64,000 nt of DNA from Anaerolineales bacterium (GTDB lineage Bacteria > Chloroflexota > Anaerolineae > Anaerolineales > UBA4823), in contig JAOSJQ010000018.1 in the NCBI GenBank assembly GCA_027494035.1, positions 28,920-92,919 on the forward strand, given 5' to 3'. The notes under the pieces are model-generated. The model was given only the letters and a program-made list of their open reading frames with translations, was not told the origin of the DNA and ran no database searches. The position numbers were made by a program, and so were the translations under genes. Of the stretch, positions 9,620-43,909 are shown one piece after another (positions within the stretch are counted from its first letter, which is position 1; each line of letters opens with the position of its first letter).

Positions 9620-9835
9620 CTACTTCCGCTTTCCCCGCACAATCTGATGCACCCGCTGCTCTGAGATGCCGAACAGCCGCGCCAACTCCGGCACGCTCAT
9701 CCCCGCCGCATATCGGGCGCGAATCTCTACATTGCGTTCACGTTTGAGGCTTGACACGGGAGCCTGAGGAAGCGAAAAGCCACGATATAGCTGCTGCAAA
9801 ACGCGGCTCGTGGCTTGCTCAAGGGTGTATAAGGT
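9620..9835 (-). pseudogene. orphan C-terminal HTH tail of a second (element B) serine integrase
   Basis: Directly follows the left att core on the minus strand. RNVEIRARYAAGMSVPELARLFGISEQRVHQIVRGKRK is clearly homologous to the tail at 43638-43894. Confidence 0.7.
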
Positions 9836-11657
9836 TGTGCCCCATAGGGGCCTTTGGCTCAGAGGCTGCCTCAGTAGTAGGCGAAATCGCCTGCGTTTCA
9901 TCCGCTTGAACGCTCGTACCACCGTCCATTTGGTCACTCGTACCGCTGCCCATTCCACCGTCTCCTTGTTCGTCTTCGACCTCATACAGTGCCGCGCGCA
10001 GCACGACAAACTGATCTGCCCACGGCTTGAGCCGGAAGTCTACGATCCGCTGCGTGTCCAGGTCATACACGATTTCATCGAACAGGCTGCGCACTAAGCC
10101 CTGGCGGTCCTCATCTTCACCAACCTCCCAGAGACGCACCAGCTTATCCAGCGCTTCGGCGCACATTGCGAACTCTAACGCCAGCTTTTCGGTTTCGGTG
10201 GTACGTGCCTCCCAGTGAGCAATTTCGCGCTCATTTTGCTCAACCCGCCTGCGGTATTCTTCAGCGCTGATCACGCCATCACCAAAAAGAACAACTGCTG
10301 CCTCAATGCGCCGACGACACAGGGCAATTACTTCTTGCTTTTCCTGTTCTAAATCCTGGTCGTTTTCGTAGCGACCATTAGCCTTGTCCATCTGAATCGC
10401 CAACTCAGTCATGAGGTCGAGGGCCTCAGGACGAATGGTGAGCAGTCTTATCAGCCGCTCGAAATCTGCTTCCAGAACCTCGCAAAGAACTGACCGGTTT
10501 TGGCAACCACACTTGACGCCTGCTTTGTGCCGATAACGCATCTTCCCGTAAGTGTCGCTGCCGCCCAGAGCGCTGATCAGCCTGGGGTCTTTTTGTTCCG
10601 CTGCTCGCCGGACACAATGAGCACAATATGTGATCGCCGATAACGGGTAGAAGTGCGTTCTCCGGTTAACGCCCTCATCGGCGCGGCGAATGGTTCGCTC
10701 TTGCCGGGCGCGAGCCACCGAACGCAGCAGCTTGAGAGGGAAAACCGCCCGTTTTTCCTTGAAAGGAACTTCATCAACATTGTCAAAGCCGTCATAGGCG
10801 CGTCGGTCTTTGGCTTTCTTGTCCATGACGATTCCGCCATATTCCGGCCAGTTGGCGACCACACGGCGCACATCGTCTCGCGTAACCTCGCGTGGCTCTC
10901 CGGTACGATCACGATAAGCCCAGCCTTCCTCGTTCATTTTGTAAGCGATTTTTTCCAGGCCAAGATTACCGGTCGCATAGAGCTCGAGAGTGCGTTCCGC
11001 CGCTTCGAAAAAGCCTCGCCAGAGGGCCCCGTCTTCAGGCATTTCATCAGCAGTACCGGCGACAAATGTTCCATCTGCCAAGAGCCAGGCTCCCTCAGGG
11101 GTGGGTTGCAGATGGCCTTCGGCACCCCGAAGCGTCCCAAATGGAGGCATACCGATGCTGATACCTTTGGCCTTGCGGTAGGACACACTGTCTTTGGCTC
11201 TTTGAGAGATGTCTTCGGCGTAGTACTCGTCGATGATCGCGGTGAACTGGATAAACAGACGCCCCATCGCCGTCGAGGTGTCAACCTCACGCCCAGGGGC
11301 GGCTAGCACTAACGCTAACCCGCGCTTTTCCAGATAGTCCACCAGGTCTCCAACCCTCCACCCTTTGCGGTGAAGCCGCGAAAGATCATTGGCTACCAAG
11401 GCCACCACATCTGGATCAGCCAGACGGGCCTTCAGGGATAGCCATTCTGGTCGATTAGCTTCCTTGCGGGCTGATTTATGCCCGCCAACATCTTCATACC
11501 ATTCAGCAATCCAGCCTTTTCGCTCAATAAAGCCTTGGATGTTGGATCGCTGACGCTCCGGGCTGTTTCTGTCGTCATCATCGCGGGTGTAGGACTGGCG
11601 AACGTAACAAAGAGCAACCTTGCGCTCCGATGGTGTGAAAACCTTTTTACTGGACAT
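9819..11657 (-). CDS. large serine recombinase (integrase), C-terminally truncated at the att site in the integrated state
   Basis: Catalytic YVRQS and DLSRLHR, recombinase domain (PPFG), Zn ribbon (CAHC...CGC), coiled coil. The frame runs through the att core (PMGH) and stops 5 codons later. Confidence 0.95.
   Translation of the reverse strand: MSSKKVFTPSERKVALCYVRQSYTRDDDDRNSPERQRSNIQGFIERKGWIAEWYEDVGGHKSARKEANRPEWLSLKARLADPDVVALVANDLSRLHRKGWRVGDLVDYLEKRGLALVLAAPGREVDTSTAMGRLFIQFTAIIDEYYAEDISQRAKDSVSYRKAKGISIGMPPFGTLRGAEGHLQPTPEGAWLLADGTFVAGTADEMPEDGALWRGFFEAAERTLELYATGNLGLEKIAYKMNEEGWAYRDRTGEPREVTRDDVRRVVANWPEYGGIVMDKKAKDRRAYDGFDNVDEVPFKEKRAVFPLKLLRSVARARQERTIRRADEGVNRRTHFYPLSAITYCAHCVRRAAEQKDPRLISALGGSDTYGKMRYRHKAGVKCGCQNRSVLCEVLEADFERLIRLLTIRPEALDLMTELAIQMDKANGRYENDQDLEQEKQEVIALCRRRIEAAVVLFGDGVISAEEYRRRVEQNEREIAHWEARTTETEKLALEFAMCAEALDKLVRLWEVGEDEDRQGLVRSLFDEIVYDLDTQRIVDFRLKPWADQFVVLRAALYEVEDEQGDGGMGSGTSDQMDGGTSVQADETQAISPTTEAASEPKAPMGHNLIHP
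9836..9850. repeat. left att core, 15-bp direct repeat of the tRNA-Glu 3' end (TGTGCCCCATAGGGG)
   Basis: Exact match to 43895-43909; contains the quasi-palindrome CCCC-ATA-GGGG. Confidence 0.92.
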
Positions 11658-11898
11658 GTTTGCCTCCTCGGCTTAAATGGCGAGCTTGAATCTTGGCGAC
11701 CACCTGCATGAAGTTGGTTAAGCCTCGTGTGAAATCCGTGCCGGTATAGTCCTGGCCTTCCTGCTCGGAAAGTCGCCTGCATACTTTGTGAGCATACTGA
11801 CGGACCAGGTCGGTGTTAGGCGGAACATACTCGACGGGCCTTTCGAGTTGTTTGACTTCAGTTTCCGGTAGCAGGCATAGCTGTGGTGGCTCACGCAT
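11647..11898 (-). CDS. small hypothetical protein overlapping the integrase start (candidate directionality factor)
   Basis: Strong RBS AGAAAGGAG before MREPPQ; its stop overlaps the integrase start by 11 nt. Confidence 0.65.
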   Translation of the reverse strand: MREPPQLCLLPETEVKQLERPVEYVPPNTDLVRQYAHKVCRRLSEQEGQDYTGTDFTRGLTNFMQVVAKIQARHLSRGGKHVQ

Positions 11899-12121
11899 AT
11901 ACTCCTTTCTCTTCCCGGCCAGATAAAAAGCCGTCAATGGCTCTGGGTAGCAGCGATTGACGGCTTGGACACGCCTGTTAGAATTGCGTGTTAGCCACCT
12001 GGCTGCTACGTCAGCCGGGTTGGTTAGCCCTCAGTTGACGTTAGCGCGCCAATTGGGGGTGTTTTATTTGACTCTGGTATTCATCTATAGTATATATAAT
12101 ATAGCGCTATTCTACAACTGT

Positions 12122-12442
12122 TTAGTGCTTGTTGTAGATGGAAGCCGAACCACGTGAGTATCTTTTATGAGGTCGCTTCAGGAAACGGCAGACGGAGTAG
12201 AGGGCATGTGCCCAGATAGAGAGGGTACGTTGGCGCAGCGCAGAGCGATTAAGGTCAACCTCTACATCAGCCAAGAGAGAGGAATAATAGCGGGCCTGTC
12301 CAGCGAGTTTTTTGCGTTGAGCCCAACCAATCAGGTTTTCCAGATCATCGCGGCGATAAAGCTTATGGAAAACAGCCCAGAATTGCTGCCAATCTCGCCA
12401 CCAGTTATTTTGATTATGAATCAGCAGACTCGTTTTTGGCAT
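12122..12442 (-). CDS. hypothetical protein
   Basis: 106-aa ORF co-oriented just downstream of the XRE regulator. Confidence 0.45.
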   Translation of the reverse strand: MPKTSLLIHNQNNWWRDWQQFWAVFHKLYRRDDLENLIGWAQRKKLAGQARYYSSLLADVEVDLNRSALRQRTLSIWAHALYSVCRFLKRPHKRYSRGSASIYNKH

Positions 12443-12496
12443 ATCAACGCGAGTCTATGATCGAGGAGCGACAGAGTCAAGCAGTAAAATGGGGGA

Positions 12497-12853
12497 TTAC
12501 TCGTGATGGTGAAGGCCAATGGACTGCGCCAAAGTTCGCATGATCTCTATGGCAGAATGTTTTGCTTCAACTGTGGGCAACCGGTGAAACTCCTCCAGAA
12601 GGGAACGATCCAAGTCGTCGATACTGATTTCGCCCTCATAGAAGTAGAGCAGAGGAACTTGCAGCGCCTTCGCAAACAGTGGCAAATCCGCTGCCGAGAG
12701 TTTTCGCCGACCATTTTCATACGCTGAGATGGCCGCCTGGTCTTTGGATACCAAAGAGGCGAGATCTCCTTGAGACATGGTCAATCGCTCGCGGGCTTTG
12801 CGAATACGAACACCGAGGAGTTTTGGGTTCACGTTTTCACTCTTAAACGACAT
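12497..12853 (-). CDS. XRE-family HTH transcriptional regulator
   Basis: LGVRIRKARERLTMSQGDLASLVSKDQAAISAYENGRRK. Confidence 0.9.
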   Translation of the reverse strand: MSFKSENVNPKLLGVRIRKARERLTMSQGDLASLVSKDQAAISAYENGRRKLSAADLPLFAKALQVPLLYFYEGEISIDDLDRSLLEEFHRLPTVEAKHSAIEIMRTLAQSIGLHHHE

Positions 12854-13046
12854 AGGTTTATGGCAATTCTACAAAGAAGGGAGCGAAAGGTCTACAACAT
12901 TAACGCTATATCCAAATTCACCTTGTAATTCCAAACACATTCCTGACCGGGCAAGTTAGTCAGAAAAGGAGACGCACATGAGCGGCGGGACTGGAACTTA
13001 GGTGTTTTTAGTGGGCGACCTCGGAAAACGTGGTCGCTCACGCTTT

Positions 13047-13802: not shown

Positions 13803-13832
13803 CGGTCGTGGTGTCTGCTACTCTGATCGCGC

Positions 13833-14231
13833 ATGGTGGAATCTCCCGATTCTTCCAGCGCCCATCAAGAGTTGCTCACTATCAAGGATAGTATCCTGGT
13901 TCAGTGGCAGCGCCTTCCCCCAGAACACCAAGCCAGTATGTTGCTGGTACTCATGAATAACGTGCTCAACAGCGAGTATGGCCCGTGGGCCGCTAATGCC
14001 GTTAAGCTCCTATCAACGCAACCCGAAACCCCTCCCCCCAACACATCCGCTCCGCCCATCTCCAGCGCAGATCTTGCCCGTCACACGGATCTCGCTCCGG
14101 ACGAAATTGCACTTCTCAGCGCCGAAGACCTCAAGGACATATCCGCTGCTGTTACGGCGCACCTGATCTTCGACGTATTTTGGGACGAGGTCGAGGACAT
14201 GGCGCGCCAGCGCCTTGACCAAACGCGATAA
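13833..14231 (+). CDS. hypothetical protein
   Basis: First gene of a tightly packed + strand operon. Confidence 0.6.
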   Translation: MVESPDSSSAHQELLTIKDSILVQWQRLPPEHQASMLLVLMNNVLNSEYGPWAANAVKLLSTQPETPPPNTSAPPISSADLARHTDLAPDEIALLSAEDLKDISAAVTAHLIFDVFWDEVEDMARQRLDQTR

Positions 14232-21009: not shown

Positions 21010-22407
21010 TCAATCAGAATTTCTGATGTTTACGTAGAAGCGATTGCTTCGCCCCACACACACACCATTCTGGACGATGAAGCATTCAATCCAGTGTTTT
21101 CCGGTGTACTGGGTGATCTCCCAATTTACCAGAGGGTTATTTGGATCGGTCTGCCTATTTCGACCTCTACCCTGAAAGAAGTCTCCACGCAGTCCGCCCT
21201 CGTTTTTGGCGTGTTCACCTGTGTTGACAACTTGCCAGTGAACTTCGTACTCACCTCGGCAACCAGTAGAGGCAACAAACTTAATTTCCAGCCCACCTTG
21301 GAGAATCCGCCCATTCGAGTTGAGTCCACTGGGATTGCCCACACCTGGATGCACGTAAGCATTAAGCCTGACCTTTGCCTTCTGCTGCAATTTGACAGGC
21401 CATGGGGGTATTCTTGCGTGTGAAATGCTGCTCAGGGTTATAGCGGATGCGGCCTTGCGTGTTTCCTCGGCTTCCTCTGAGTCATATAACGGGAACTTGT
21501 CACCGAAGATTTGTCTCCATAACTCTGAGCTCTGGAGATCATCAGTTTCATCACGTGCCACTATGGCAAGGGCAAGGCTTTCGTTCACGCAATCGAGAAA
21601 GACTTGAAATTCTTCCGGACTCATGCTGGTCTTGATGATTTCGCCGGGCAGTCCTGGGTCGGCAAGGGAAGGTACAGTGGTTGCACTGAAATACTTGAGC
21701 GATATATTGGTCAGAACAGCAACAAAATGGTCGGCCCATTCCTTTCGCGTCGGGTCAAAATTCTCACCGGTCAGGCACTCCACCCAAAATCCTTTGGGCT
21801 TAGGTCGTTCAACGTCCGGCTGCTTAACCTCACATTGGTATTTCCACCACCACTTCATCATTTTCACAAGCGGAACATACCGGCCTTGACTGCATTCTTC
21901 CGAATTAAGTGTGGTAGTGTGCTTGAGGTGACCTCTGGGGTGGCTGGGAATCCATACTTTTAAATCCCTGTCAGGGACCAAAAGAGGCTCATCCGCTGTT
22001 GTCTGTACCACTGCCGGAATGATGTCCAGTGTCAACTCAACACCATCACGATCTGGTAGAGGCTCATCCACTCGAATCGACCGCCGTTGGTAGGCCGTTT
22101 CAGGGTTTTCGTAGCACTCGCCTAAGGCCGCCTTGAACCGTCTCAATACCTTCTGGGGGTTGTTGTCGGGATCGGTGGTATCCAAGTCGGTGAGAATAAC
22201 AATATCCACATCCTTGATATCACCGACCGCCGTATGGCGTCTGTAGGAACCATAGAGAAACGAACCGGTAATTACCTCGGCCAGCTTGCAATCGGTTTGA
22301 AGACAGCCTCGCACATAAGTATGTGCTTCGACGGCATGGTTGACAGCCTTCGTTTCAGGCTCAAGGTTGCTAAGGAAGGCATCGAACAGACTGTTTAGTT
22401 TACCCAT
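21010..22407 (-). CDS. CBASS CD-NTase (SMODS nucleotidyltransferase) with a C-terminal AGS-C domain
   Basis: GSYRRHTAVGDIKDVDIV catalytic motif; C-terminal WQVVNTG...LRGDF...YTGKHWIECFIVQNGVCVGRS. Confidence 0.9.
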   Translation of the reverse strand: MGKLNSLFDAFLSNLEPETKAVNHAVEAHTYVRGCLQTDCKLAEVITGSFLYGSYRRHTAVGDIKDVDIVILTDLDTTDPDNNPQKVLRRFKAALGECYENPETAYQRRSIRVDEPLPDRDGVELTLDIIPAVVQTTADEPLLVPDRDLKVWIPSHPRGHLKHTTTLNSEECSQGRYVPLVKMMKWWWKYQCEVKQPDVERPKPKGFWVECLTGENFDPTRKEWADHFVAVLTNISLKYFSATTVPSLADPGLPGEIIKTSMSPEEFQVFLDCVNESLALAIVARDETDDLQSSELWRQIFGDKFPLYDSEEAEETRKAASAITLSSISHARIPPWPVKLQQKAKVRLNAYVHPGVGNPSGLNSNGRILQGGLEIKFVASTGCRGEYEVHWQVVNTGEHAKNEGGLRGDFFQGRGRNRQTDPNNPLVNWEITQYTGKHWIECFIVQNGVCVGRSNRFYVNIRNSD

Positions 22408-22413
22408 CGTGCC

Positions 22414-23712
22414 TCACATTGTATTGGTCAGCGTTCCGGCCAACCGATATTCGGTTCTGGTTTCATCCAGGTAGTACAGAGAGAGCGGACAAATAGCGTT
22501 GAGGTGGTATCCAATCAAACAAGCGAGAGCGGCAGGCATTGCCCCAAATACATGAATATGGGTTGCTCCCCACCGGTCACAAAGATTCTTTGTCTTGCGC
22601 GCAATCTCCTGAGAAATAGACAGGGCGTGAGCAGCATTGACGACCCGCCCATCAGGGAGAGAAAAACCCAGCACGGCCTGTGGGGGAGAGGGCCAACTGG
22701 AGACAAAGTCTCTTACGGAAGAAGTTATGTTTCGCGGGGAGAGATTCAGCACCACCGCCACTTCACTACTCTGGCTATTTAGAAACACTGGCAGATCGTC
22801 GAATATGCCGGTTGTTTTGGCAGGTAACCCCGTCGTCGCCCAAACTCCATTCCTGGCGATTATGCGGAGATTGAAGCGCGTGACTCCTCGAAAAACCCAA
22901 CCAACCAGAAAGGCCAGAGATAGCCTGGTTTGCAGGTGTATAGTGAGTTCCTTCGAGAAATCCGGAGGTTGAATCACGGCTCGTAATGCGCTCAGTGTTT
23001 GATGAGCCTTTACAAATTGTCCTGGAGACTCTTCTTCACTCACCACGAATTGGTGCAATGACACCTGTACGTCTGCTTGTCCCCGAAAGCTAACGTCGGA
23101 AAAACTGGAAATGCCAATGTTCAACGAGTAGGGTTCAACTCTCACAATCCCGCCGAGAGTCTGATCGATGTGCCTTCTTAGGTCTTCGCCCGATACTGGC
23201 CATTCGATGGTCTCTTTTGAAACACCGTTGAGTCCAGGGAAGACAAGGCTCTCGAAGTTATCAGACGGAAAGTGCTTGGTGAAATGTTTGTACAAAAGAT
23301 CAGGATAGTCTGAGAGTTGATCCATCAGCTTTTCCCAAAACACGATTTCAACGGGGAAGCGGTTCTGTGCTATCCGCTCCTCGCTCACCGCCAACACGTG
23401 ACTCTGAGTTTCCCCATCTGTGGCGGCACTTGTGACAATAATCATCTTGTTGAGGGCAGGGGCAAACCCTTCTGCTCGGCCAATCTCATCATCAACTTCT
23501 TTGTTTGAAATTTCGTCGGTCGTGCGGTGTTTACATTGAATGCCGAGCAGACCGTTTTGTGTTTGACCCACGACATCCACTCCATGCTGGCGCTGACCTC
23601 GACGCGCATATCTTTGGAAGTTATCGCTTTGATAAGTCCGAGAATAAACATCACAGACAATGTCTTCAAATGTTTCCCAATCTCTAGGTTTAGGGAATAT
23701 GAATTGTGCCAT
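22414..23712 (-). CDS. CBASS effector: restriction-endonuclease-like domain plus SAVED sensor
   Basis: N-terminal FEDIV...QHGVDVVG...IQCK; C-terminal HIHVFGAMPAALACLIGYHLN; 6 nt from the CD-NTase gene. Confidence 0.85.
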   Translation of the reverse strand: MAQFIFPKPRDWETFEDIVCDVYSRTYQSDNFQRYARRGQRQHGVDVVGQTQNGLLGIQCKHRTTDEISNKEVDDEIGRAEGFAPALNKMIIVTSAATDGETQSHVLAVSEERIAQNRFPVEIVFWEKLMDQLSDYPDLLYKHFTKHFPSDNFESLVFPGLNGVSKETIEWPVSGEDLRRHIDQTLGGIVRVEPYSLNIGISSFSDVSFRGQADVQVSLHQFVVSEEESPGQFVKAHQTLSALRAVIQPPDFSKELTIHLQTRLSLAFLVGWVFRGVTRFNLRIIARNGVWATTGLPAKTTGIFDDLPVFLNSQSSEVAVVLNLSPRNITSSVRDFVSSWPSPPQAVLGFSLPDGRVVNAAHALSISQEIARKTKNLCDRWGATHIHVFGAMPAALACLIGYHLNAICPLSLYYLDETRTEYRLAGTLTNTM

Positions 23713-29893: not shown

Positions 29894-30193
29894 GTCACTC
29901 CTTATGGGAAATTGCGAAAACGTTAAGTGTGTAATCTGGTAACGTTATATATCAACTCTGTTTATTTGGGAAATTGGCCCAGATGGCTCAACAGAACCGC
30001 GCGAAGTCAGTCCCCGCTGGAGGGCAAAGTGGCCTAACTTTGTTTTTATCCTCCAGCGTCTTCGCTCAGGCCGGGCGTCGAAGCTCCGATCTCTTGCATA
30101 TAGAACGGAGCCAAGACTTGACTCCGCGCTGGTAATGGCAGCGGCACCAGCTTGTGGTGTTTGCCGATTGGAGCATACCACTAAGCGGCCCGC

Positions 30194-31099
30194 TCAGAGC
30201 CCGAAAATACGGTTAGAGTTTGGAAAGAGACCCGTTGGTCGCTCATCACCCCCACGAAGCCAAATTGGGTCGTTTAAGACGCTCTGACGCGTCACTTTGT
30301 CGGCGGTTGTGAATAGAAAAACTTGTGCGTCTTTACCCGCCGCGATTTCCGTTTGTTGTTTGAGGTTGTGCATTCGCCGCTCGCTGGTCGTCACCACGAG
30401 CCAGCGACCGGACTGGAAACCAAATCGCTGCTTATATTCGCGGCTGCGCAGGTAGGCAACACCGGGGAGGACTTTTTCGCGGGCAAAACGGGGATTATCT
30501 TCGGTCGCACAGTCAATTTCCAGCAACAATCGTGAGTACTGCTTGCCTTGCTTGATGACGAAGAAACCATCAGGGCGAATCAAGCGCTTGGCTTTTTGAC
30601 CGTTGGCCTGCCGGTATTCCACCCTATCCGGGTACGCCCAAAATTCACCCTCAGGAATCCACTGCTCCAGGGTGAAATCCGATTTATCGTCACACGCCTC
30701 CATTACATCCAGACGGAAATCGTTAACTGCCAGATCGTGTGCCAGTTGTGCCCAGCGCGGCTCCCGGCGATACTGAAACTCCTTGAGCCCTAAGCCCTGC
30801 AATCCGGCCACATACGTCGCCCCGCGCTTTCCCAGCCAGTACACCATGCAAGGCAAGCCAGCTCTTTGTGCGCGACTGGGCTTTTCCAGATAGCCGTGTT
30901 GAAACAACATGCTCAAGCGACCTCTCGTCTGACGCTCGCCGGTGAAAAACAATCGGCGAATCTGGTAGTCGCTTAGCACGCCGTCAAAGGTGTGGACTGT
31001 TTCCATGATGCGCTTGTCGCGCTCGGTGAGCAGCATGGGCGGGGCGGTTTTTGGTCGCCTGGCCTGAGCAGGCGCTCTTTTGAGCGGGAAAATCTCCAT
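30194..31099 (-). CDS. second replication-relaxation (Replic_Relax) family protein
   Basis: LTERDKRIM, HDLAVNDFRL, IRPDGFF, LLEIDCAT. Confidence 0.85.
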   Translation of the reverse strand: MEIFPLKRAPAQARRPKTAPPMLLTERDKRIMETVHTFDGVLSDYQIRRLFFTGERQTRGRLSMLFQHGYLEKPSRAQRAGLPCMVYWLGKRGATYVAGLQGLGLKEFQYRREPRWAQLAHDLAVNDFRLDVMEACDDKSDFTLEQWIPEGEFWAYPDRVEYRQANGQKAKRLIRPDGFFVIKQGKQYSRLLLEIDCATEDNPRFAREKVLPGVAYLRSREYKQRFGFQSGRWLVVTTSERRMHNLKQQTEIAAGKDAQVFLFTTADKVTRQSVLNDPIWLRGGDERPTGLFPNSNRIFGL

Positions 31100-33923: not shown

Positions 33924-34901
33924 TCAGCGCGGCAGAAGCATGTCCGCGAGCGACTTTATGGTCGCGGTGAAGCTGGCATCCATTCCCTGATGTCCTCGCC
34001 ATTTCATCCAGAAGTCGATGATACTGCCGCCCCCGCAGCCAGCATAACAATGCCAGAAGTTCTCCTCTCGGTTCACGCCGAAGCTCTTGTGTTGATCTTC
34101 ATGGAACGGGCAGCAGCCGGTCGCGTTCTGATCGAGCTCGACGTAGCGCCGCACGAAATCGTAGACGCTGATCGAGTTCTTCAGGCGCTCGGATAGCGTG
34201 GCTCCGGCTGGTTCAGGGCGGGGTTCTGGAAAAAGCGGCTTGACCTGGGAAAGGTCAACGCTCGACTGCTTTAAGCACACTTGCCGGATATAGGCAGGCG
34301 GCACAATCTGTGGCACCGACATAATGCGTACTTGCTCGCGCACGCTAGGCGCAATGGGCGCGCCTTCAGGGGTGACGAAATAATACCGTTGGCCGGTCAG
34401 GCGGTGCTTTCCGAGCGGCAAGCGAACCAACGAGCCGGGGCCGGTTTTGAGCTCGGATTGCTTTGGGAATAGCTCAATGCCTTGCAGGTCGTAGCGTCCA
34501 AGGAGGCGCTGCCCAAACTGCCGGGCTGATGATCCTGGGATGGGGGAGAAGAACAGCCACAAATGTCCGCCGCGCCGGGAGGGTTCCAGATAGGCAGTGA
34601 TGCCATCTTGTTCCAGGTCTTTCGTCATTTTGAGGAGCTCAGCCCACTGTTCAGGCGTGTCGGCATCCAAACAGAGCCAGCGGGCCTGATCGCGCTCATC
34701 CAGCGCATACGCGCCGAGCGTCATTATCCCCTTGATGTGTGCTTGTAAGTAGTCGAGTTGGAAACGACGTTTGAGGGTGAGGTATCGTCCGTCCTCAGTC
34801 TGAATGGGATAGCAGTCCTGACGAGGAATGAACGTCTTGGCATACCGACGCAAGATGTCCCGGTCTAGCTCTGGAGATGGTGGTTTTTCCCTGCCCCTCA
34901 C
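33924..34901 (-). CDS. archaeo-eukaryotic primase-like domain plus CHC2 zinc finger (start uncertain; the ORF is open to 35078)
   Basis: LCLDAD, SRRGGHLWLFF, ELFPKQ, GSLVRLPLGKH; CPFHED...WHCYAGC. Confidence 0.8.
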   Translation of the reverse strand: MRGREKPPSPELDRDILRRYAKTFIPRQDCYPIQTEDGRYLTLKRRFQLDYLQAHIKGIMTLGAYALDERDQARWLCLDADTPEQWAELLKMTKDLEQDGITAYLEPSRRGGHLWLFFSPIPGSSARQFGQRLLGRYDLQGIELFPKQSELKTGPGSLVRLPLGKHRLTGQRYYFVTPEGAPIAPSVREQVRIMSVPQIVPPAYIRQVCLKQSSVDLSQVKPLFPEPRPEPAGATLSERLKNSISVYDFVRRYVELDQNATGCCPFHEDQHKSFGVNREENFWHCYAGCGGGSIIDFWMKWRGHQGMDASFTATIKSLADMLLPR

Positions 34902-34959
34902 ACGAACATTATACAAAACGGTGGGGACGTATTGGAGTAGCGGCAAGTTTTGGCTGGCT

Positions 34960-35166
34960 CTATTGGGTGACTCGCTCGGCGCTATGCTTGAGCGCTTCGT
35001 AGTCGGCAACAGGGAGCATAACCAGAACAGGGAGTCCGTCACGCTCGACGATGAGGTGCTGCTTGTCTTTGAACACACGGCGCATCGTTTCGCCGATATT
35101 ACGCTGAAGTTGAGTAGAAGAGATGATTTCAGGGGTGAGATTTGACTTGTTGGGTGATTGGATCAT
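34960..35166 (-). CDS. Phd/YefM-like antitoxin-fold protein
   Basis: ISSTQLQRNIGETMRRV...HLIVERDGLPVLVMLPVADYEAL. Confidence 0.75.
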   Translation of the reverse strand: MIQSPNKSNLTPEIISSTQLQRNIGETMRRVFKDKQHLIVERDGLPVLVMLPVADYEALKHSAERVTQ

Positions 35167-36060: not shown

Positions 36061-36783
36061 TTAGTAGTCCCAGTGCTCGTGGGCCAAAGGTTCGCGATTC
36101 AACTCGTCACGTAGAAGACGCCAACTTGGCAGGAACTTGTCCATTAGTCCGATAAACCGGTCGTTGTGGTGCCGTTCCAGCAGATGTACCATCTCGTGAA
36201 CAATGATGTACTCCAGGCATTGCGTTGGTTTCTTAACTAGTTCCAGATTCAGCCAAATCCGGCGCGCCTCAATATTGCAGCTACCCCACTTGGTCTTCAT
36301 TTGCCTTACACCCCAATCGGCAACCTCAACACCAATAACCGGCTCCCACTTGGCAAAGAGTAGGGGAATAGCTTCCTTGAGCTGTCTGCGATACCACGCT
36401 AACATCACGCGCTCGCGCTGAGCGGTGTCGCCGCCCGGACGAACAATCAGTTCAATTTTCGTGTTATGCCGAATGACAACCCCCTGTTTTTCAGGAAGAT
36501 AGAGCACGTTGAGCAAGTACCGATTGCCTTGAAAATAGTGACTTTCACCAGAGACATATTCCCGTGCCGACTGCCGTTCTTGTGCCACAAATTTCGCTTG
36601 TTGGCGCTTGATCCATCCCAGTTTAGAGATGACCGCCAGCCGCACGGCCTCATCATCCACGCGCAGTGGTGCGGCCACCCGTACCCTGCCGCTGGGTGGA
36701 TAAACGGCGACGTGTAGATTCTTGATGTCTTTGCGAACGACATCCACAACCAGATCGTTCACAATGATCTGGTGCATACTCAA
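36061..36783 (-). CDS. YgjP/SprT-like (M48/DUF45) zinc metallopeptidase
   Basis: KNLHVAVYPP, KTKWGSC, YIIVHEMVHL; typically found next to hsdR. Confidence 0.9.
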   Translation of the reverse strand: MSMHQIIVNDLVVDVVRKDIKNLHVAVYPPSGRVRVAAPLRVDDEAVRLAVISKLGWIKRQQAKFVAQERQSAREYVSGESHYFQGNRYLLNVLYLPEKQGVVIRHNTKIELIVRPGGDTAQRERVMLAWYRRQLKEAIPLLFAKWEPVIGVEVADWGVRQMKTKWGSCNIEARRIWLNLELVKKPTQCLEYIIVHEMVHLLERHHNDRFIGLMDKFLPSWRLLRDELNREPLAHEHWDY

Positions 36784-39700
36784 TACTCGCTTTGATTCTT
36801 AACGAGCTCAAAAACTTGATCGGTCAATGCCTGGTCTTTCAGATGCTTACGGATAGCAAGCCAAACCTCTCTTTCCTTGACCCTGTGGCCCCGCCAACCA
36901 TCTTTTTTGGTCTGGCGAATTTCAGTGTCCAGTGAGAGGGCAAGTTGTTCATCATTTCCCAAGTTATCGAAGAGCGCCCGCTTAGCCCGGGTATCGAGCG
37001 ACTTGGGGTAAGAGGTTCCAATGGTGGGATTATTGACCTGTTTGGCTAAGGCCACGATTCGTGAGAGATATTCCTCGTACTCCAACGCTCTTTGTTTCCG
37101 TTCCTGAATGAGCGTATCGAGCAAATCCGACATGCGCTCGTAATACTTCGGATTGATCGGATTCTCGTCAATAATCACCCGACGCAAGTTGTTTTCAATG
37201 GTTTCGGCGATAGCTTCAGGATTACTGGCGATCCCCTCAGGGAGATCATTCACGGCGTCGGGACCACGCTCAACAATGAGCTCCACGAGTGTTAGGTCAT
37301 CAAAGGCCGAGACTTTTTCGCTCTCTTCGGCGCGGATATAGGTGTCAATTAGGTGGCGCATAGCGGGCTCATACATTTTTAGGTCAATGTAATCGCCGCT
37401 GGCTATCTTGACCTCAGTTCGCACTTTCTCGTAGTAATCGACTTCCCTCTTGATCGTCTCTGTTTCTGACTCACTATAACCGGCATCCTGCATTTCGTTG
37501 GCAAGATTGGCATAGGCGCGAATCAAAGACACTGTGAGCTTGTAGAGCGCAAGGCGTTTCGGTTCGTTTTCCTTGAGCGCATCCTTATCGGTAGTGTCTT
37601 CCGCACAGAAATACCGGATGTAAGCTTGGGTATCTTTAGGCGGATCGACCGGTTCGCAGAGGGCCTTTATGGCTTCGCGCGCCTCTTCCAGCCGTTCCCG
37701 GCCTTTGTCCAGACGGTCGCTCAGCAATCCGGCGACATCTTCCTCATCAAAGTCATCGAACGCGCCTGACGTGTAATCATGTACCGACCCTTCCAAGCTC
37801 TGGAATAGGTCTTTGTAATCCACGATGTAGCCATATTCCTTATCGTCACCATCTAGCCGGTTTACCCGGCAGATAGCCTGGAACAGGCCATGATCGCGCA
37901 TCTGCTTATCGATATAGAGATAGGTCGCCGACGGTGCATCAAAACCAGTCAACAACTTGTCTACCACGATCAGCAACTTCATTTGTCCCGGCTCTTCGAC
38001 GAACTTTTTCTTTACTTCTCTCTCAAAAACATCTGGGTCTTTGCCACCCAGCATCTCCTCGTAAATATCGTACTGCCTGAGTTTTTCGGTCAAACCTTCG
38101 CCGGTCGTTTCACCTTTAATGTCACTAGGGGATGGCCGGTAAGAGGTCACGATGGCGCATTTGTCAAATCCATGTGAGACAAACAACTCGTAAAACTTGC
38201 AGGCTTGGTAGATGCTCCCGGAGACCAGTAGGGCATTCCCGCGTCCGCTTTGCAGACGATCCTTGGTTTCCATGTCCAATAGGATATCTGCAACAATCGT
38301 CTCCAGGCGCGACTTCGAACTGAGAACCTTTTGCATGGTGCCCCATTTTTGCTTGAGTTGTGCCAGCGCGACGTCATTCAACCCCTTGGTTTTTTTGTCA
38401 AACCAAAGATCAATCTTCTCTTGTGAGGTGATGTTCTGGTCAATGTCGCGGGCTTCGTAACGCAGGTCTAGTACGACCTTGTCTTTGACCGCCTCATCGT
38501 ATTTGTAGGTGTGAATGTACCCTCCAAATACCTCGATGCTTTTTTGCTTATCAGCTTTGAGTAGTGGGGTGCCCGTGAAACCGATAAATACCGCATTAGG
38601 CAAGATCTGCTTCATGGCTTCGTGCAGCACGCCCGATTGCGTGCGATGGCACTCATCCACAAAGACGAAAATGTTTCCCTTTGCCTTGAAATCAGGTGTC
38701 AGGCTGCGCCTCAACTCATCCACGTATCCGGCAATATCACCTTCTTCTTTGCCTGCGAACTTATGGATCAGCGAGCACATTAGCCAGGGCTTGGCTGCGT
38801 TGAGCTGCGTAAGGAGATCCTGCCCACTCTTGGTACGATAAATATCCTCGTTGACCCCCTGATAGACCCGCTCGATTTGCTCGTCCAACTCGGTGCGGTC
38901 CGTGATGACCAGTACGCGGGGGTCAGTCACATGTTCCCGAATCCACTTGGTTAACCAGACCATCGTCAGGCTTTTGCCGCTTCCCTGGGTATGCCAGATG
39001 ATTCCACCCTCACGCCGACGCACATACTCCTGTGTGGCCTTCACTCCAAAGTACTGGTTTGGACGACAGATCTTTTTTACACCGGCGTCGAAGACAATAA
39101 AGTCATGGATGATTTCTAGGAAACGCGGTTTTTCGCATAATTGCAGTAAGTGCCGGTCGAGCAAATTCTCAACCGTGCTGTCTTCTTTCCAGGTTAGGTA
39201 GTATTTTTCCGGCGTTTCAATGGTTGCATAGCGCAGCCCCTGGGTGTCATTACCCGCCATAACCAACTGCACCGTACCGAAGAAAGGTTTGATGAATCGA
39301 TTTTGCTGGTTGTCCAGGTTTTGGCGAATGCCCTCTGAGACCCCGACCACCGAACGCTTGAGTTCCAGCACACCCAGTGCAATGCCGTTGACATACAGCA
39401 CCACGTCCGGACGCTTGTCGTGTTCGCCGCGCACCGTTACCTCTTCGGCGATGGTAAAGTGGTTATTAAGCGGGTTTTTCCAGTCGATCAGCCAGACAGT
39501 TTCGGTATTCTCGCCTACGTCAGGCAGCACCTTCACCCCGTAGCGCAGCAGGCCATACAGGTCTTTACTGAGGTCGTAGAGGCTTTTGCTCTGGTCGCTC
39601 ACAGCCTTGTTGACGTCAAACATGGCTTTGGCGATCAGGACTTCGTTGTATCCCTGCTCCCGTAGGTAAGCACGCAGAGCAGACTCTTCGATGTTCCGGT

Positions 39701-39809
39701 TATCCTCGCGCTTTTCCCAGTTGCCCAGATACGTATAGTCCAAGGCGTCTTGAAACAATCTGACTACCCGGTTCTGGGTAGCGCGCTCGATTTGTCCAAC
39801 TGTGCTCAT
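36780..39809 (-). CDS. hsdR: type I restriction endonuclease subunit R
   Basis: RPDVVLYVNGIALGVLELK, HTQGSGKS, DECHR, FTGTP, KLLTGFDAP. Confidence 0.95.
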   Translation of the reverse strand: MSTVGQIERATQNRVVRLFQDALDYTYLGNWEKREDNRNIEESALRAYLREQGYNEVLIAKAMFDVNKAVSDQSKSLYDLSKDLYGLLRYGVKVLPDVGENTETVWLIDWKNPLNNHFTIAEEVTVRGEHDKRPDVVLYVNGIALGVLELKRSVVGVSEGIRQNLDNQQNRFIKPFFGTVQLVMAGNDTQGLRYATIETPEKYYLTWKEDSTVENLLDRHLLQLCEKPRFLEIIHDFIVFDAGVKKICRPNQYFGVKATQEYVRRREGGIIWHTQGSGKSLTMVWLTKWIREHVTDPRVLVITDRTELDEQIERVYQGVNEDIYRTKSGQDLLTQLNAAKPWLMCSLIHKFAGKEEGDIAGYVDELRRSLTPDFKAKGNIFVFVDECHRTQSGVLHEAMKQILPNAVFIGFTGTPLLKADKQKSIEVFGGYIHTYKYDEAVKDKVVLDLRYEARDIDQNITSQEKIDLWFDKKTKGLNDVALAQLKQKWGTMQKVLSSKSRLETIVADILLDMETKDRLQSGRGNALLVSGSIYQACKFYELFVSHGFDKCAIVTSYRPSPSDIKGETTGEGLTEKLRQYDIYEEMLGGKDPDVFEREVKKKFVEEPGQMKLLIVVDKLLTGFDAPSATYLYIDKQMRDHGLFQAICRVNRLDGDDKEYGYIVDYKDLFQSLEGSVHDYTSGAFDDFDEEDVAGLLSDRLDKGRERLEEAREAIKALCEPVDPPKDTQAYIRYFCAEDTTDKDALKENEPKRLALYKLTVSLIRAYANLANEMQDAGYSESETETIKREVDYYEKVRTEVKIASGDYIDLKMYEPAMRHLIDTYIRAEESEKVSAFDDLTLVELIVERGPDAVNDLPEGIASNPEAIAETIENNLRRVIIDENPINPKYYERMSDLLDTLIQERKQRALEYEEYLSRIVALAKQVNNPTIGTSYPKSLDTRAKRALFDNLGNDEQLALSLDTEIRQTKKDGWRGHRVKEREVWLAIRKHLKDQALTDQVFELVKNQSEY

Positions 39810-40990
39810 ATCAACCTCGTTTTGCCGGTGAGTAACTCTTGCATCATACCCTGCTTGAGGGCTCTAGTTTTCTCTCGCCGCTTTTCGAGCGCGGCGATTT
39901 CGGCATCCATGTCAGAGAGGACCGCAGCGATGGCGGTTTGTTCTTTTGGAGAAGGAACATCAATCTCTAAGTGTTGATATTCTGAAATGTAATACCGCTT
40001 GTGGTCTCCTAGCGAGAATTTGATCGCCTGCATTTTCTCAAATACGAAGCGCAGGTCTATTTCTTTGTGTTTAGGTTTGAGCAATTTGATAGCAGAGGAT
40101 TTTACCTTGAACGGAAAATCCACATATCTGCTTGCAGTAGTGAAATCATCAAAGACGATCACGGGTAGATTCTGATAAATCCCGTTTTCTTCATTGGTGT
40201 ATCCAAGAATAAACGTCTTCCCTGCGGTTAGCACTGGCGTGCCGCTATCGTCGTATTCAGTGTCTTTGACTAGATATCTGCCTGGTTGTTCATAATCCAG
40301 GAGATCTCCCAACTGCTTTGTCTCCCAGGCTTCGCTGAATCCCGGCAAGCGCGTCTTACCAGTGATCAGCGCTTGCATTGCGCTCTGCTTGACATCGCGC
40401 TTCTTGGCAATAAGGTCATCCAACGCAGCAATTTGGTCATCGACATCGTTCAATACTTCGGCAATGGCGTGTTGTTCTTCAATCGTTGGCGGAAGCGGGA
40501 TTGTATATCGCTTGAGCCAAGCGTATTCAATGCTTTCAACTGTTGTTCCTGTCTTCATACAAATTGATAAGATGTGAGAACCTTTATGGAGCAAGACATG
40601 AAGCAGATAATCAGCTACTATTTTTTTGTTTGGAATGACAGCTTTCAAATCTTGGTTGATTGCAACTGGCACAATATTTGTGGCTACTGGGAGGTATTTT
40701 CTGAGAATGCCACTTCGCATGACTACCAAAACCGCACCTTCATCAAGCAGAATTGTGCTTGATTCCCTCACTGAAGCCTCGGTGATTTTATATAGAGTGT
40801 GAGACAGTCTATTGACTTTAACATCACCGGAAGAAACCCAAGGGATAGTTCCGTTTGACCAATACGCTAAATGTGACTTTGAAGGTGTACCACCACCTTT
40901 CCAAGTCCCCAGTTCCTCCAAACTTATAGGATTCCAATCTTCAGGAATCACACCAACCTCAGTCTGCTTATAACCTGGTTTCACTACCAT
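39806..40990 (-). CDS. hsdS: type I restriction-modification specificity subunit S
   Basis: Two TRDs with IPLPPTIEEQHAIA and PSPKEQTAIA conserved helices; ends QELLTGKTRL. Confidence 0.95.
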   Translation of the reverse strand: MVVKPGYKQTEVGVIPEDWNPISLEELGTWKGGGTPSKSHLAYWSNGTIPWVSSGDVKVNRLSHTLYKITEASVRESSTILLDEGAVLVVMRSGILRKYLPVATNIVPVAINQDLKAVIPNKKIVADYLLHVLLHKGSHILSICMKTGTTVESIEYAWLKRYTIPLPPTIEEQHAIAEVLNDVDDQIAALDDLIAKKRDVKQSAMQALITGKTRLPGFSEAWETKQLGDLLDYEQPGRYLVKDTEYDDSGTPVLTAGKTFILGYTNEENGIYQNLPVIVFDDFTTASRYVDFPFKVKSSAIKLLKPKHKEIDLRFVFEKMQAIKFSLGDHKRYYISEYQHLEIDVPSPKEQTAIAAVLSDMDAEIAALEKRREKTRALKQGMMQELLTGKTRLI

Positions 40991-43422
40991 GTGAATCCCA
41001 ACTTTCCCAGGTGGGCGTTCACCTTGTGGCTTAGCGCTTCCACGACTTCGGCCAGTTGGGGTAGGGGCTCTCCATAGCGCTCCGCAAGTTGCTTGATGCG
41101 CCCGGTCAACACCTGCGACACACGGTCAAGTTCGCTCTGGACAGCGTCGTCCAGCGTCGCCAGCCACTTGTCTTCCACGACCAAGGTCTTCACCTCGTTC
41201 TCGCTCAACGCCGGGTACTTGGCGATAACCATGGCGTCCAAAGCCTCTTGAGCCTCTTTGGTGTGCTTCTTGAGGGCACTTTCTTTGTCCATCAACGCGA
41301 GATAGTCGCTCAGGACTTGGTATTCATCAGCGTAATCCGGCTCGTCTTTGATTGCCTTGAGGCGGGTAGTTACATCTTTCTTGGTGTAATTCCCTTTTTC
41401 GTTCTTGGCTTCAAATAACAACCCTTCTTCGCTGCCATGCTCTTCGTCGAGTTCTTCCATCTGGCGAGTGATGTCATCCCTGGCCGTTTCCAACGCCTCA
41501 ATCGTTTGTTGTTCGGCGGCAAAATAACGGGCGACAATCAGTGACGGCGGAATCAAATCCGCCTTATATTTCCGTTTGCCCACCTCAAAATCGGCCTTTT
41601 CTGTGATCTTCTGGCCATTCTGTGCCACAAGCAACCGCAGCTTGTTGGCTCCAAGCCAACCGTCAACAACGACCAGGTATACATCGTCCTGCATCGTCTC
41701 GACCCAGTAGCTCATGAGGTGTTGATATACGTCATGCTTGTCAATCAGCACGGTGTCAGCGAACACCTGGAGAAGATCTTCCGAGATCTCCTCAATCAGT
41801 TCTTTGGGACGGGTGCCTGCGTCAATGGCCTTAAGTCGGGGCGTATTTGTTGCCTGCCAGCGGGCGAAGAGGGTACACACCGTGTTGGCATAAGCCACAA
41901 ACTCGGGGTGCGCGAAGATAACCGGCTTGATCTGCGCGGCGTCAACCTTTAGTTGGCTGTAACCCTCCCGCTCGATGGGTTCGAAAAGCTCTTGTTTGAG
42001 TGAAGGGAACACTTCCCAAAAACGCGCAAGGTCGTCAATGTCCCGATTGGGAATACCGCCGAGCAAGTGTGCCTCGATATCATGCAGGTCCTCTGGGTCG
42101 GCGCTGTCAATATAGCGCGGGATGTTTAGATTGAAGTCGTTGGCTTCAATTTCGGTTAAGCTTACCATCCGCGAGTACCTGGGTAGTTCGATCTGTCGGT
42201 TGAACACATCCACAATCTTGTGGATGTCCTGGTGACGCAGGCGGTTCTTATTGCCGTCCTTCTTGAAGCCTTTGCTGGCATCGATCATGAAGATGCCAGC
42301 GCGGTTGGCAGCATTTTCCTTGTCGAGGATGATGATGCAGGCCGGAATGCCGGTGCCATAAAATAGGTTGGGAGGTAAGCCAATGATGCCTTTGATGTAC
42401 CCTCTACGAACGATGTTGCGGCGGATTTCGGCTTCTGCGTTACCCCGGAACAGCACCCCATGCGGAAGGATGATCGCCCCCTTGCCAGTACTTTTCAGTG
42501 AGCGCAAGATGTGCAGCAAGAAGGCATAATCGCCGTTCTTTTTGGGCGGAATGCCGTCCACAAAGCGTTGATAGATGTCATTCGCTGGATCGAACCCGTT
42601 GCTCCATGCTTTGGAGGAAAACGGCGGATTGGCTACGGCAAAGTCAAAGGTCTTGAGACTCCCATCTTTTTCTTTGAAGTAGGGGCTGGAGAGAGTGTTA
42701 TCTTTCCAGATTTCAGCCGCAGGGTTGTCATGCAAGTACATGTTCATCTTGGCGAGCGTGACTGTGGCATTATCCATTTCTTGACCATAGATGGTCACGC
42801 CGGTTCGGGCTTCGTCAGCCGCCTTGAGCAGCAATGAGCCAGAGCCACAAGTCGGGTCATAAATGGTCTGATCCTGGCGCTTAGCGTGCTGAATCCCGAT
42901 GACCTTAGCCATAATCCTCGAGACTTCAGCTGGAGTGTAGAACTGTCCTTTACTCTTGCCCGATTCGGTGGCGAAGTTTCGCATCAGGTACTCATAGGCG
43001 TCGCCGAGGATGTCATCGCCATCAGCACGGTTGCGACTGAAATCTAGTCCCGGCACTTCAAAGATGGCGATCAGGTTGGACAGGCGATCAACCATCTCCT
43101 TGTCTTTGCCTAATTTGTCCGCATTGTTGAAGTCGGGCATTTCATTTGCGCTCAGAGAAGTGCCACTAACAAGTCTCGCAATAATCTTGTTGATTTTGTC
43201 GCCGATCTCTACGTCGCCCTTGAGTGCAACCATATCGGCGAAACTTCCGCCCTCAGGGACTTCAATCAGTGCGTCAGGTTGTCCGGCATACTTGTCTGAG
43301 ACGTATTTGACGAACAGGAGAACCAGCACGTAGTCCTTGTATTGCGAGGCATCCATGCCGCCACGGAGTTCGTCGCAGCTTTTCCAGAGAGAACTGTAGA
43401 GCTCACTTTTCTTGATTGCCAT
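40984..43422 (-). CDS. hsdM: type I restriction-modification methyltransferase subunit M
   Basis: LRGGMDASQYKDY, GQFYTP, DPTCGSGSLL, ANPPFS. Confidence 0.97.
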   Translation of the reverse strand: MAIKKSELYSSLWKSCDELRGGMDASQYKDYVLVLLFVKYVSDKYAGQPDALIEVPEGGSFADMVALKGDVEIGDKINKIIARLVSGTSLSANEMPDFNNADKLGKDKEMVDRLSNLIAIFEVPGLDFSRNRADGDDILGDAYEYLMRNFATESGKSKGQFYTPAEVSRIMAKVIGIQHAKRQDQTIYDPTCGSGSLLLKAADEARTGVTIYGQEMDNATVTLAKMNMYLHDNPAAEIWKDNTLSSPYFKEKDGSLKTFDFAVANPPFSSKAWSNGFDPANDIYQRFVDGIPPKKNGDYAFLLHILRSLKSTGKGAIILPHGVLFRGNAEAEIRRNIVRRGYIKGIIGLPPNLFYGTGIPACIIILDKENAANRAGIFMIDASKGFKKDGNKNRLRHQDIHKIVDVFNRQIELPRYSRMVSLTEIEANDFNLNIPRYIDSADPEDLHDIEAHLLGGIPNRDIDDLARFWEVFPSLKQELFEPIEREGYSQLKVDAAQIKPVIFAHPEFVAYANTVCTLFARWQATNTPRLKAIDAGTRPKELIEEISEDLLQVFADTVLIDKHDVYQHLMSYWVETMQDDVYLVVVDGWLGANKLRLLVAQNGQKITEKADFEVGKRKYKADLIPPSLIVARYFAAEQQTIEALETARDDITRQMEELDEEHGSEEGLLFEAKNEKGNYTKKDVTTRLKAIKDEPDYADEYQVLSDYLALMDKESALKKHTKEAQEALDAMVIAKYPALSENEVKTLVVEDKWLATLDDAVQSELDRVSQVLTGRIKQLAERYGEPLPQLAEVVEALSHKVNAHLGKLGFTW

Positions 43423-43584
43423 AAAAACCCCATCTGTTAAGACTTATACCATTGAAACATATCATACCAGAGGGAAACTCTGGCAAACGGAGCTTGTGTG
43501 ATGTATGGACGACGTTGTCGTAATAGAGTATGTTCATCGTCAATTTTACCCGGTTTGATGGAGCTTATCCAGGCGAATCAACGC

Positions 43585-43618
43585 AAAAAGAGCCCGATCA
43601 AAGCTGATCAGGCTCTTT
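43585..43618 (-). terminator. intrinsic terminator 20 nt downstream of the integrase HTH tail
   Basis: Minus-strand AAAGAGCCUGAUCA-GCUU-UGAUCGGGCUCUUUUU hairpin plus U tract. Confidence 0.75.
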
Positions 43619-43637
43619 AGCGATTTGAAAATCTGAT

Positions 43638-43894
43638 CTACTTCCTCTTCCCCCTCAATATCTGGTACACCCGATTCTTCGAGATGCCATACTCCCTGGC
43701 CAAGTCAGGCACGCTCATGCCAGCAGCATACTGAGCCCGGATTTCGGCATTGCGATTTGTCTTTTTGGGAGTACTCTGAGATTGCGGTGATTGGGGAGTT
43801 GGCGAACCTGGATACAGTCGATTCACCAGGGAGAAAACAGCTTCTTCGAAGGTAAAAATAAAGCTGCCATCTGCTCTAAAGGCATGTGGCAGCC
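43638..43894 (-). other. detached C-terminal 85 aa (HTH) of the element A serine integrase
   Basis: Open frame continuous with the att-core codons P-M-G-H in the same frame used by the integrase at 9836-9850; ends RNAEIRAQYAAGMSVPDLAREYGISKNRVYQILRGKRK. Confidence 0.8.
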
Positions 43895-43909
43895 TGTGCC
43901 CCATAGGGG
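43895..43909. repeat. right att core overlapping the tRNA-Glu 3' end
   Basis: Exact match to 9836-9850. Confidence 0.92.

Follow-up and report, generated by a model that had tools for sequence, protein, structure and literature searches.

What becomes of an integrase when the attachment site at which it recombines lies inside its own gene? This question is raised by a 64,000-nt stretch of DNA (the window) from Anaerolineales bacterium (GTDB UBA4823; assembly GCA_027494035.1, contig JAOSJQ010000018.1, positions 28,920 to 92,919 of the forward strand), in which a large serine recombinase (LSR) gene stands at one edge of a genomic island that ends at a tRNA-Glu gene. An original prediction, covering positions 9,819 to 43,909 of the window, held that attP, the attachment site of the element, is contained in the integrase gene, that integration removes a C-terminal helix-turn-helix (HTH) domain and that excision would restore it in frame. 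The claim holds in the window and across a family of related elements. The best explanation overall, which we consider probable, is an LSR-inserted tRNA-Glu element with attP within the integrase gene and the HTH encoded on the excised circle. The features concerned are the following, in window coordinates.

9819–11657, minus strand: integrated form of the LSR gene; its 612 aa include every standard LSR domain, and the core is followed by five foreign codons (NLIHP)
9836–9850, minus strand: attL core; displaced tRNA-Glu 3′ end that the integrase reads as (A)PMGH
43582–43618, minus strand: intrinsic terminator, 14-bp stem and U-tract (−26.9 kcal/mol, z −5.1), about 20 nt past the tail stop
43638–43894, minus strand: cognate integrase tail of 85 aa plus stop, comprising the rest of the linker, a short helix and a three-helix HTH
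43895–43909, minus strand: attR core, the tRNA 3′ end supplied by the island
43896–43969, minus strand: tRNA-Glu(CTC), the integration target, intact
43985–44013, minus strand: tRNA promoter-like site, TTGACG-17-TACAAT (consensus match only)

The two cores are the only copies in the window of the exact 15-mer CCCCTATGGGGCACA, for which 0.01 would be expected by chance. They are identical at 15/15 positions, and the repeat reaches 18 nt if one mismatch is allowed. The right copy corresponds to the T-stem and acceptor 3′ strand of tRNA-Glu(CTC), the single tRNA found in the window by ARAGORN (43969–43896), which is on the same strand as the integrase. The G+C content is about 0.50–0.55 between the cores vs. 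0.60–0.70 to the right of the tRNA. An integrase and transfer genes are enclosed by direct repeats at a conserved target, as in integrative mobilizable or conjugative elements (IMEs and ICEs). Since no mating-pair genes were found between the cores, the element appears to be mobilizable rather than self-transmissible. The segment 9836–43909 is an integrative, probably mobilizable element of about 34 kb that was inserted by an LSR into the 3′ end of tRNA-Glu(CTC).

The integrase belongs to the LSRs. It has an N-terminal resolvase-type catalytic domain with the nucleophilic serine (Pfam Resolvase PF00239, E 9e-22, residues 16–165), and the catalytic Ser and Arg of the Y-x-R-x-S...R motif are invariant in an alignment of 62 homologs, as are the four Cys of the zinc ribbon. 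The match to Recombinase (PF07508) is weak (E 0.0087, under the cut-off). The Recombinase domain, followed by a zinc ribbon with an inserted coiled coil, is recognized from the structure match of the homolog P0045 and from the invariant Cys.

Following an acidic Gly/Ser linker, the integrase open reading frame (ORF) reads the left core as P-M-G-H and stops five codons further on, ending in ...EPKAPMGHNLIHP* (predicted tail-less C-terminus ...PMGHNLIHP). The ORF thereby crosses attL and has its stop codon beyond the island. At the right core, the same P-M-G-H frame is open to a stop at 43638–43640 and encodes the tail, RLPHAF...RNAEIRAQYAAGMSVPDLAREYGISKNRVYQILRGKRK, with Pfam matches to HTH_7 (E 7.8e-7), HTH_23 and Mor. 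When the two ends are joined in silico at the core, the frame is kept and an uninterrupted protein of 607 + 85 = 692 aa results, with the predicted junction peptide ...EPKAPMGHRLPHAFR..., vs. 612 aa in the integrated state. The linker, both readings of the core, the 85-aa HTH frame, the two protein lengths and the terminator 20 nt beyond the tail had all been described in the original prediction, and all of them were found as described. The terminator at 43582–43618 is a 14-bp hairpin with a U-run, which a simple terminator scanner did not detect. The integrated copy thus encodes an integrase that lacks the HTH and is otherwise complete. The tail itself has no dependable start codon of its own; the sole upstream ATG in the window falls within the tRNA acceptor stem. 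By this reading of the sequence, the integrase–HTH protein would be encoded only by the excised circle or by a lucky neighbor in a tandem array, and the terminator serves the full-length gene only in the circular form.

The same arrangement was found in related islands. Both ends of each locatable island were fused at the shared core, giving 12 joined islands from six genomes: the window, G201, G202, G203 (two islands), G204 and G205, with five from the isolate Aggregatilinea lenta. The cognate joins are in frame in 11 of the 12 (binomial probability 4.7e-5 at p = 1/3), as the original prediction had proposed to check, while a control in which the integrase is merely followed by a chromosomal tail, as at array junctions, is in frame in 3/11. 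Four frame/orientation classes are seen: PMGH and PLWG, which read the tRNA in the sense direction, and MPHRGL and CPIG, which read it in antisense. Each class has tails matched to its own frame, as shown in A. lenta. Most frequent in genomes (34/78 loci) are antisense integrases, whose genes converge on the tRNA; they target tRNA-Glu (CTC or TTC), four tRNA-Arg species and tRNA-Lys. By sequence and comparison, the split layout is conserved in frame in a family of tRNA-Glu-, tRNA-Arg- and tRNA-Lys-targeting elements of Anaerolineae-type Chloroflexota. The family is sporadic in the order to which the window belongs, where it was found in 0/200 other genomes at E 1e-30.

Among loci L071–L148, family members read in antisense into tRNA-Arg (TCG, CCT, CCG, ACG), tRNA-Lys(TTT) and tRNA-Glu. 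The Arg-targeting branch has the recognition-helix motif LSDRRVR.II in place of IS.QRV.QI.

Joining the ends also reconstitutes a putative attP, with two arms that are separated by the whole island in the integrated state.

9864–9870, minus strand: left (P) arm GGCAGCC, within the acidic-linker codons; inverted repeat of 43888–43894
43888–43894, minus strand: right (P′) arm GGCTGCC, within tail codons R-L-P

Both arms in the window are perfect and equidistant from the CC that starts the core, and the crossover is inferred to occur at this CC (9850–9849 / 43909–43908), the first two core bases. A perfect inverted repeat of 6–11 nt that appears only on joining is present in 9/12 joins; the linker of the integrase holds one arm and the opening codons of the tail hold the other, each 14–24 nt from the center. 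The dyad center always coincides with the two bases that open the block common to element and tRNA, so that these nine show the short attP typical of LSRs, an imperfect dyad about a 2-bp crossover shared with attB (the bacterial site), the crossover position being inferred. Arm sequences are element-specific (GGCAGCC, TGTATAAGG, TGAGGCAG, GTATACGGA, GTGGTAGCATA, GTTGGAATGCC and others), which indicates that the two arms covary. No arms were found in two of the adjacency controls, nor in the single out-of-frame pair, and the inverted arms independently confirm which ends pair. From sequence and structure model together, attP would be about 50 bp long and confined to the integrase ORF, where it occupies codons of the disordered acidic linker.

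A search with the 692-aa product had been suggested in the original prediction, and it returned several hundred proteins. Most matches are 580–630 aa and end near the core. However, 10 among the 120 matches listed are full-length, single-ORF homologs of 638–678 aa, with 98–100% query coverage that includes the HTH. Five more uninterrupted genes are found in the 78 genome loci, and one on an IMG/VR contig. A tblastn search with P0045 for plasmid or phage copies gave no match in PLSDB or INPHARED.

The tails also bear the marks of a protein-coding sequence. Between tails, the proportion of synonymous differences (pS) is 0.7–0.9, i.e., saturated, vs. 0.24–0.47 for nonsynonymous differences (pN), and dN/dS, where estimable, is mostly 0.13–0.29, with one pair at 0.52; the tails are thus under purifying selection. 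The conservation begins right after the core, and neither a conserved start codon nor a conserved ribosome-binding site precedes it. An AlphaFold2 model of the full-length homolog P0045, made with the 62-sequence alignment (mean predicted local distance difference test score, pLDDT, 80.9), has the usual LSR body to about residue 548, a stretch with pLDDT <50 at 553–604 that holds the att core, a weak helix at 605–617 and a confident three-helix HTH at 634–670 (pLDDT 79–96). In Foldseek, the body matches the SPbeta, Bxb1 and LI integrases over about 580 columns with probability 1.0. The position of attP in the codons of a disordered tether would explain how the same tRNA sequence is tolerated in four frames and orientations. 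Because the full-length genes, the 11/12 joins, the self-consistent classes, the attP arms and the selection on the tails agree, the in-frame tail is taken to be a rule of the family and not a coincidence.

How might such a gene work? In the proposed mechanism, crossover at the first CC of the core would leave the LSR body at one island end, and the rest of the linker and the HTH would come to lie at the tRNA end; excision to a circle would rejoin integrase and HTH in frame, with a terminator of their own. The HTH would act in the episomal phase, since it would be made only from the episome and yet is under purifying selection. Its role can be ranked only tentatively. The leading candidate is an accessory DNA-binding module that would aid attP × attB integration or target capture, in which case integration would downgrade the enzyme. 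Second, and less favored, is a repressing or autoregulating function that integration would abolish, and other roles share what is left once these two and the two readings of the tail as an independent gene or a neutral extension, weighed below, have been given their share. The tail-less enzyme, perhaps together with an 83-aa protein encoded directly upstream, would carry out excision. A bolder proposal, about which we are doubtful, is that DNA topology picks both the isoform and the direction of recombination: the integrase–HTH protein from the circle would be competent or favored for attP × attB, whereas the tail-less enzyme would be restricted to excision with its 83-aa partner, or idle. 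The HTH would then reach an accessory or target site on a flexible tether of 50–80 residues. The tail was also considered as a fusion of the integrase to a recombination directionality factor (RDF), and this was rejected: engineered integrase–RDF fusions favor excision, and the fusion proposed here exists only after excision has taken place.

Several observations weigh against an HTH that is borne by the circle. The A. lenta pair I5+T8 is the sole out-of-frame pair of the 12; it is also without attP arms and is probably mis-paired. The assignment of cognate ends was positional, and the G201 pair spans two contigs. Among the contigs with full-length genes, the one from IMG/VR is classed as linear, and the full-length genes could be in-frame array junctions. 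The predicted attP junction (CCAAAGG, the core and CAGGCTGCC) has 0 exact matches each in metagenome, genome and viral contigs, a result that is uninformative because assemblies rarely retain minority junctions. The tRNA sequence brings an in-frame NTG to the core in two of the four classes, and 83-aa “MPHRGL...” ORFs are a frequent call of gene finders, so that some tails may be expressed on their own. Taken to its limit, this last point would make the tail a small HTH gene in its own right, acting as a regulator or directionality factor and translated alone when integrated, for example from an NTG in the tRNA acceptor stem, so that the fusion would be meaningless. Many 81–88-aa ORF calls do start exactly at MPHRGL, and the window tail has an in-frame ATG in the core, downstream of the tRNA promoter, and a terminator of its own. 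However, that ATG is inside the acceptor stem and would be removed by 3′ processing during tRNA maturation. Tails of the PLWG and CPIG classes, which lack a start codon at the core, are conserved just as well, and the conservation, as noted above, starts directly after the core with no signal for translation. Nor does a stand-alone gene need to match the frame of an integrase 30–80 kb away, as 11/12 do. An independent tail gene is therefore very improbable.

The layout could also be real but neutral, if attP drifted into a dispensable C-terminal extension, both forms of the enzyme behave alike and time spent as a circle merely tolerates a read-through ORF. The integrated enzyme retains all LSR domains, and C-terminal extensions of other LSRs are often dispensable. 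What makes neutrality improbable is that the HTH has been conserved despite saturated synonymous sites, even where the integrases of two elements are about 50% different, and that all four classes, each arranged independently, have preserved the reading frame. Without selection, tails do degenerate, as orphan tails with stops show (G202). It is also conceivable, if unlikely, that this particular copy has become fixed as a fossil, unable to excise, and that the switch is only historical in this genome. The circular junction has no exact match in the three contig collections, and three other samples have the same attL junction beside the older tail described below, so that the arrangement is stably inherited. 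Against this, the integrase and tail ORFs are intact, the cores are still identical at every position and both attP arms are perfect, and three versions of the tRNA-Glu locus with different islands (contigs C12, C18 and C20) argue for recent turnover. An HTH that is rejoined to the integrase on the circle thus remains the preferred reading.

The left edge of the element holds a second tail, which was not part of the original prediction.

9620–9835, minus strand: orphan HTH tail of an older related element, reading P-L-W-G-T-T... through the core; stop 9620–9622

This orphan tail (...RNVEIRARYAAGMSVPELARLFGISEQRVHQIVRGKRK) adjoins the left core in frame +1 relative to the integrase. It has Pfam matches to HTH_23, Sigma70_r4 and HTH_7 and is homologous, in frame, to the tail of P0045 and to A. 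lenta tail T1. It is what remains of an earlier related element, and the window therefore contains stacked islands. The older island to the left of attL (window 1–9835) includes the intact orphan tail and ORFs at 1451–4384, 4607–8098 and 8389–9447, the last with a weak RmuC match. No other integrase of the family was found elsewhere on the 98.7-kb contig C18, which contains the window. Adjacency of tRNA and tail is also found in the close relative P0137.

The attL junction is identical in three other SRA assemblies, beside the same older tail. These are L046–L048 (Logan contigs SRR11288142, SRR25626490 and SRR25626491), three independent assemblies with the same integrase. All three contigs end about 100 nt beyond the integrase stop, within the older tail, probably because the HTH repeat makes the assembly graph branch there.

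Islands are also stacked in A. lenta, where a 200-kb array of at least six lies behind one tRNA-Glu(CTC) (BFCB01000003.1, about 2,028,869–2,229,111; L063–L069). It contains seven core copies and five family integrases in both orientations, with tails back-to-back and integrases converging on a shared core. A “tail-like” end in P0003 was considered as a degenerate tail and rejected, as it is the antisense of a second integrase that converges on the same core.

The assembly from which the window comes is a metagenome-assembled genome of 24 contigs. The same tRNA-Glu(CTC) locus is present three times in the bin, on C12, C18 (the window) and C20, with homologous upstream flanks and different islands. 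On C12 the islands form a tandem array (cores at 8805, 84504 and 112406), and C20 has an antisense-type integrase adjoining the tRNA. The 3.65-Mb contig C1 carries a tRNA-Glu(CTC) of different sequence. The multiple tRNA-Glu loci in the bin point to strain heterogeneity or mis-binning.

The remaining genes of the element are those of a mobilizable island with defense cargo.

11647–11898, minus strand: small ORF, conserved, that overlaps the start of the integrase gene and encodes 83 aa from MREPPQL...; no Pfam match
12497–12853, minus strand: XRE-type HTH regulator (Pfam HTH_3, E 1.5e-12)
21010–23712, minus strand: cargo, a cyclic-oligonucleotide-based anti-phage signaling (CBASS) pair of SMODS-AGS_C cyclase and Mrr-SAVED effector
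26319–31099, minus strand: mobilization block of Replic_Relax, TrwB/HerA-like coupling ATPase and a second Replic_Relax
33924–35078, minus strand: archaeo-eukaryotic primase (AEP) with DnaG-type zinc ribbon
36061–43422, minus strand: cargo, YgjP-like peptidase and a complete type I restriction–modification system (HsdR, HsdS, HsdM)

The integrase is flanked by the 83-aa ORF, a 106-aa ORF and the XRE regulator, and a DUF2958 protein is also encoded between the cores. Every family member examined has such a small ORF, 71–96 aa in length, directly upstream of its integrase (L001, 9618–9833; L002, 9760–10026; L003, 6909–7130; L049, 5266–5517; L063, 1260–1511); the homologs in L001, L002, L003, L046, L049 and L063 are of 71–88 aa. 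The ORF overlaps the integrase start in the window, L002, L046, L049 and L063. The 83-aa ORF is a candidate directionality factor or regulator.

Other family members have neighbors of different kinds. In L001 (Logan SRR22385480_25338), a full-length integrase stands between two type III CRISPR-Cas gene sets, with XisH/XisI adjoining, and in L049 (ENA NODE_1433) a diversity-generating retroelement (RVT_1, bAvd, Laminin_G_3) is part of the island cargo. Short repeats occur in two places in the window: three or four tandem 76-nt units, 95–100% identical, in the host flank at 55308–55611, and five 102-nt units at 25103–25576 inside a tetratricopeptide repeat (TPR) gene (25024–26235). Among 150 matches listed, P0121 and about 60 other multi-stretch ones are proteins of about 150–1557 aa that consist of 2–15 tandem HTH units and are unrelated to integrases; the unit has the motif RN..I...Y..G.S...LA..Y.(L/I)S...(I/V)Y.I(L/I).

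Control of direction by a separate factor is what gives serine integrases their value, both in nature and as tools of genome engineering. If the present reading is correct, recombination that adds or removes the enzyme's DNA-binding domain would be a self-contained way to couple the properties of an enzyme to its integration state. If, in addition, topology sets direction, this would be a natural serine integrase, family-wide, in which directionality is partly hard-wired in the structure of the gene. The elements also target and rebuild tRNA genes, a niche usually ascribed to tyrosine integrases. There is a practical consequence for annotation, in that pipelines call the integrase as 580–620 aa and the tail as an 83-aa hypothetical protein, thereby missing the true gene. 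The cultured host A. lenta, with its five copies, makes bench tests feasible.

The closest known systems are the ssrA islands of Dehalococcoides, the kind of Chloroflexota precedent that the original prediction had asked for. McMurdie et al. (2011; PMC3146451) described the same integrase–attL overlap, in which the DsiB ORF always crosses attL and ends in the flank, the target gene or a neighboring island. They suggested that the gene is perhaps fully functional only on the circle, or beside an island that provides the 3′ fragment, and judged the C-terminal part to be divergent and probably non-functional. The two systems share the phylum, the enzyme class (LSR, CcrB-like), an integrase at the island edge and tandem stacking at one small-RNA gene. 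They differ in the target, which is ssrA in Dehalococcoides and tRNA-Glu(CTC) here (tRNA-Glu, -Arg and -Lys in the family), and in the six-gene module of the Dehalococcoides islands (DsiA small serine recombinase, RecF-like, ParB, Mom); no second resolvase, ParB or Mom was found among the genes of the present element. The account of DsiB describes no HTH, frame test or attP reconstruction, and the comparison is one of descriptions. No Dehalococcoides records were among the 78 genome loci returned, and no publication on dsiB after that of 2011 came up in a literature search. If the present reading is correct, it offers a testable answer to the question raised then about the Dehalococcoides vinyl-chloride islands.

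Analogs are also known among tyrosine integrases. In phage Mx8 (Tojo 1996; Magrini 1999), as summarized in PMC6070905, attP lies in the 3′ part of int, and integration converts IntP to IntX, which receives a new C-terminus without being inactivated; the change is reversed on excision and is described there as a reversible covalent modification of the gene. Unlike the present enzyme, Mx8 Int is a tyrosine recombinase with a long attP, and the summary mentions no discrete DNA-binding domain that is toggled. In the SSV1-type (Fuselloviridae) and pTN3-type archaeal integrases, according to the review PMC8371274, attP is in the ORF and integration partitions the gene. The SSV1-type enzymes are archaeal tyrosine recombinases whose essential parts are separated, leaving a non-functional gene, whereas here a serine recombinase keeps every catalytic and standard DNA-binding domain in its integrated ORF. 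A different use of the same principle is found in the integration-dependent immunity of corynephage CyranoPS, in which attP is located in the 3′ end of a gene and integration truncates the product and alters its behavior. Mycobacteriophages have integration-dependent immunity of the same kind. In these phages, however, the truncated gene is a repressor and not a recombinase, and the integrases are of the tyrosine type.

The LSRs of phages and ICEs (SPbeta SprA, Bxb1, phiC31, LI/A118) have the same domain order and fold as the present family, and a short, dyad-symmetric attP with arms 14–24 bp from the central dinucleotide. Unlike here, their attP is outside the integrase gene, the proteins end after the zinc ribbon and coiled coil, a separate RDF governs direction and insertion is into sites other than tRNA genes; the Islander authors stated that targeting of tRNA genes was unknown for serine integrases. 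The idea of an integrase remade by its own recombination is thus not wholly new, given the overlap and similar speculation of McMurdie et al. and the tyrosine-integrase analogs in Mx8 and SSV1. What appears to be new, judging from sequences and a structure model, is that the part toggled is a conserved, predicted folded DNA-binding domain, that the cognate pairing of the ends is established by statistics and by the symmetry of the predicted attP, that the layout occurs in four frame/orientation classes, and that a large LSR family would target and rebuild tRNA genes.

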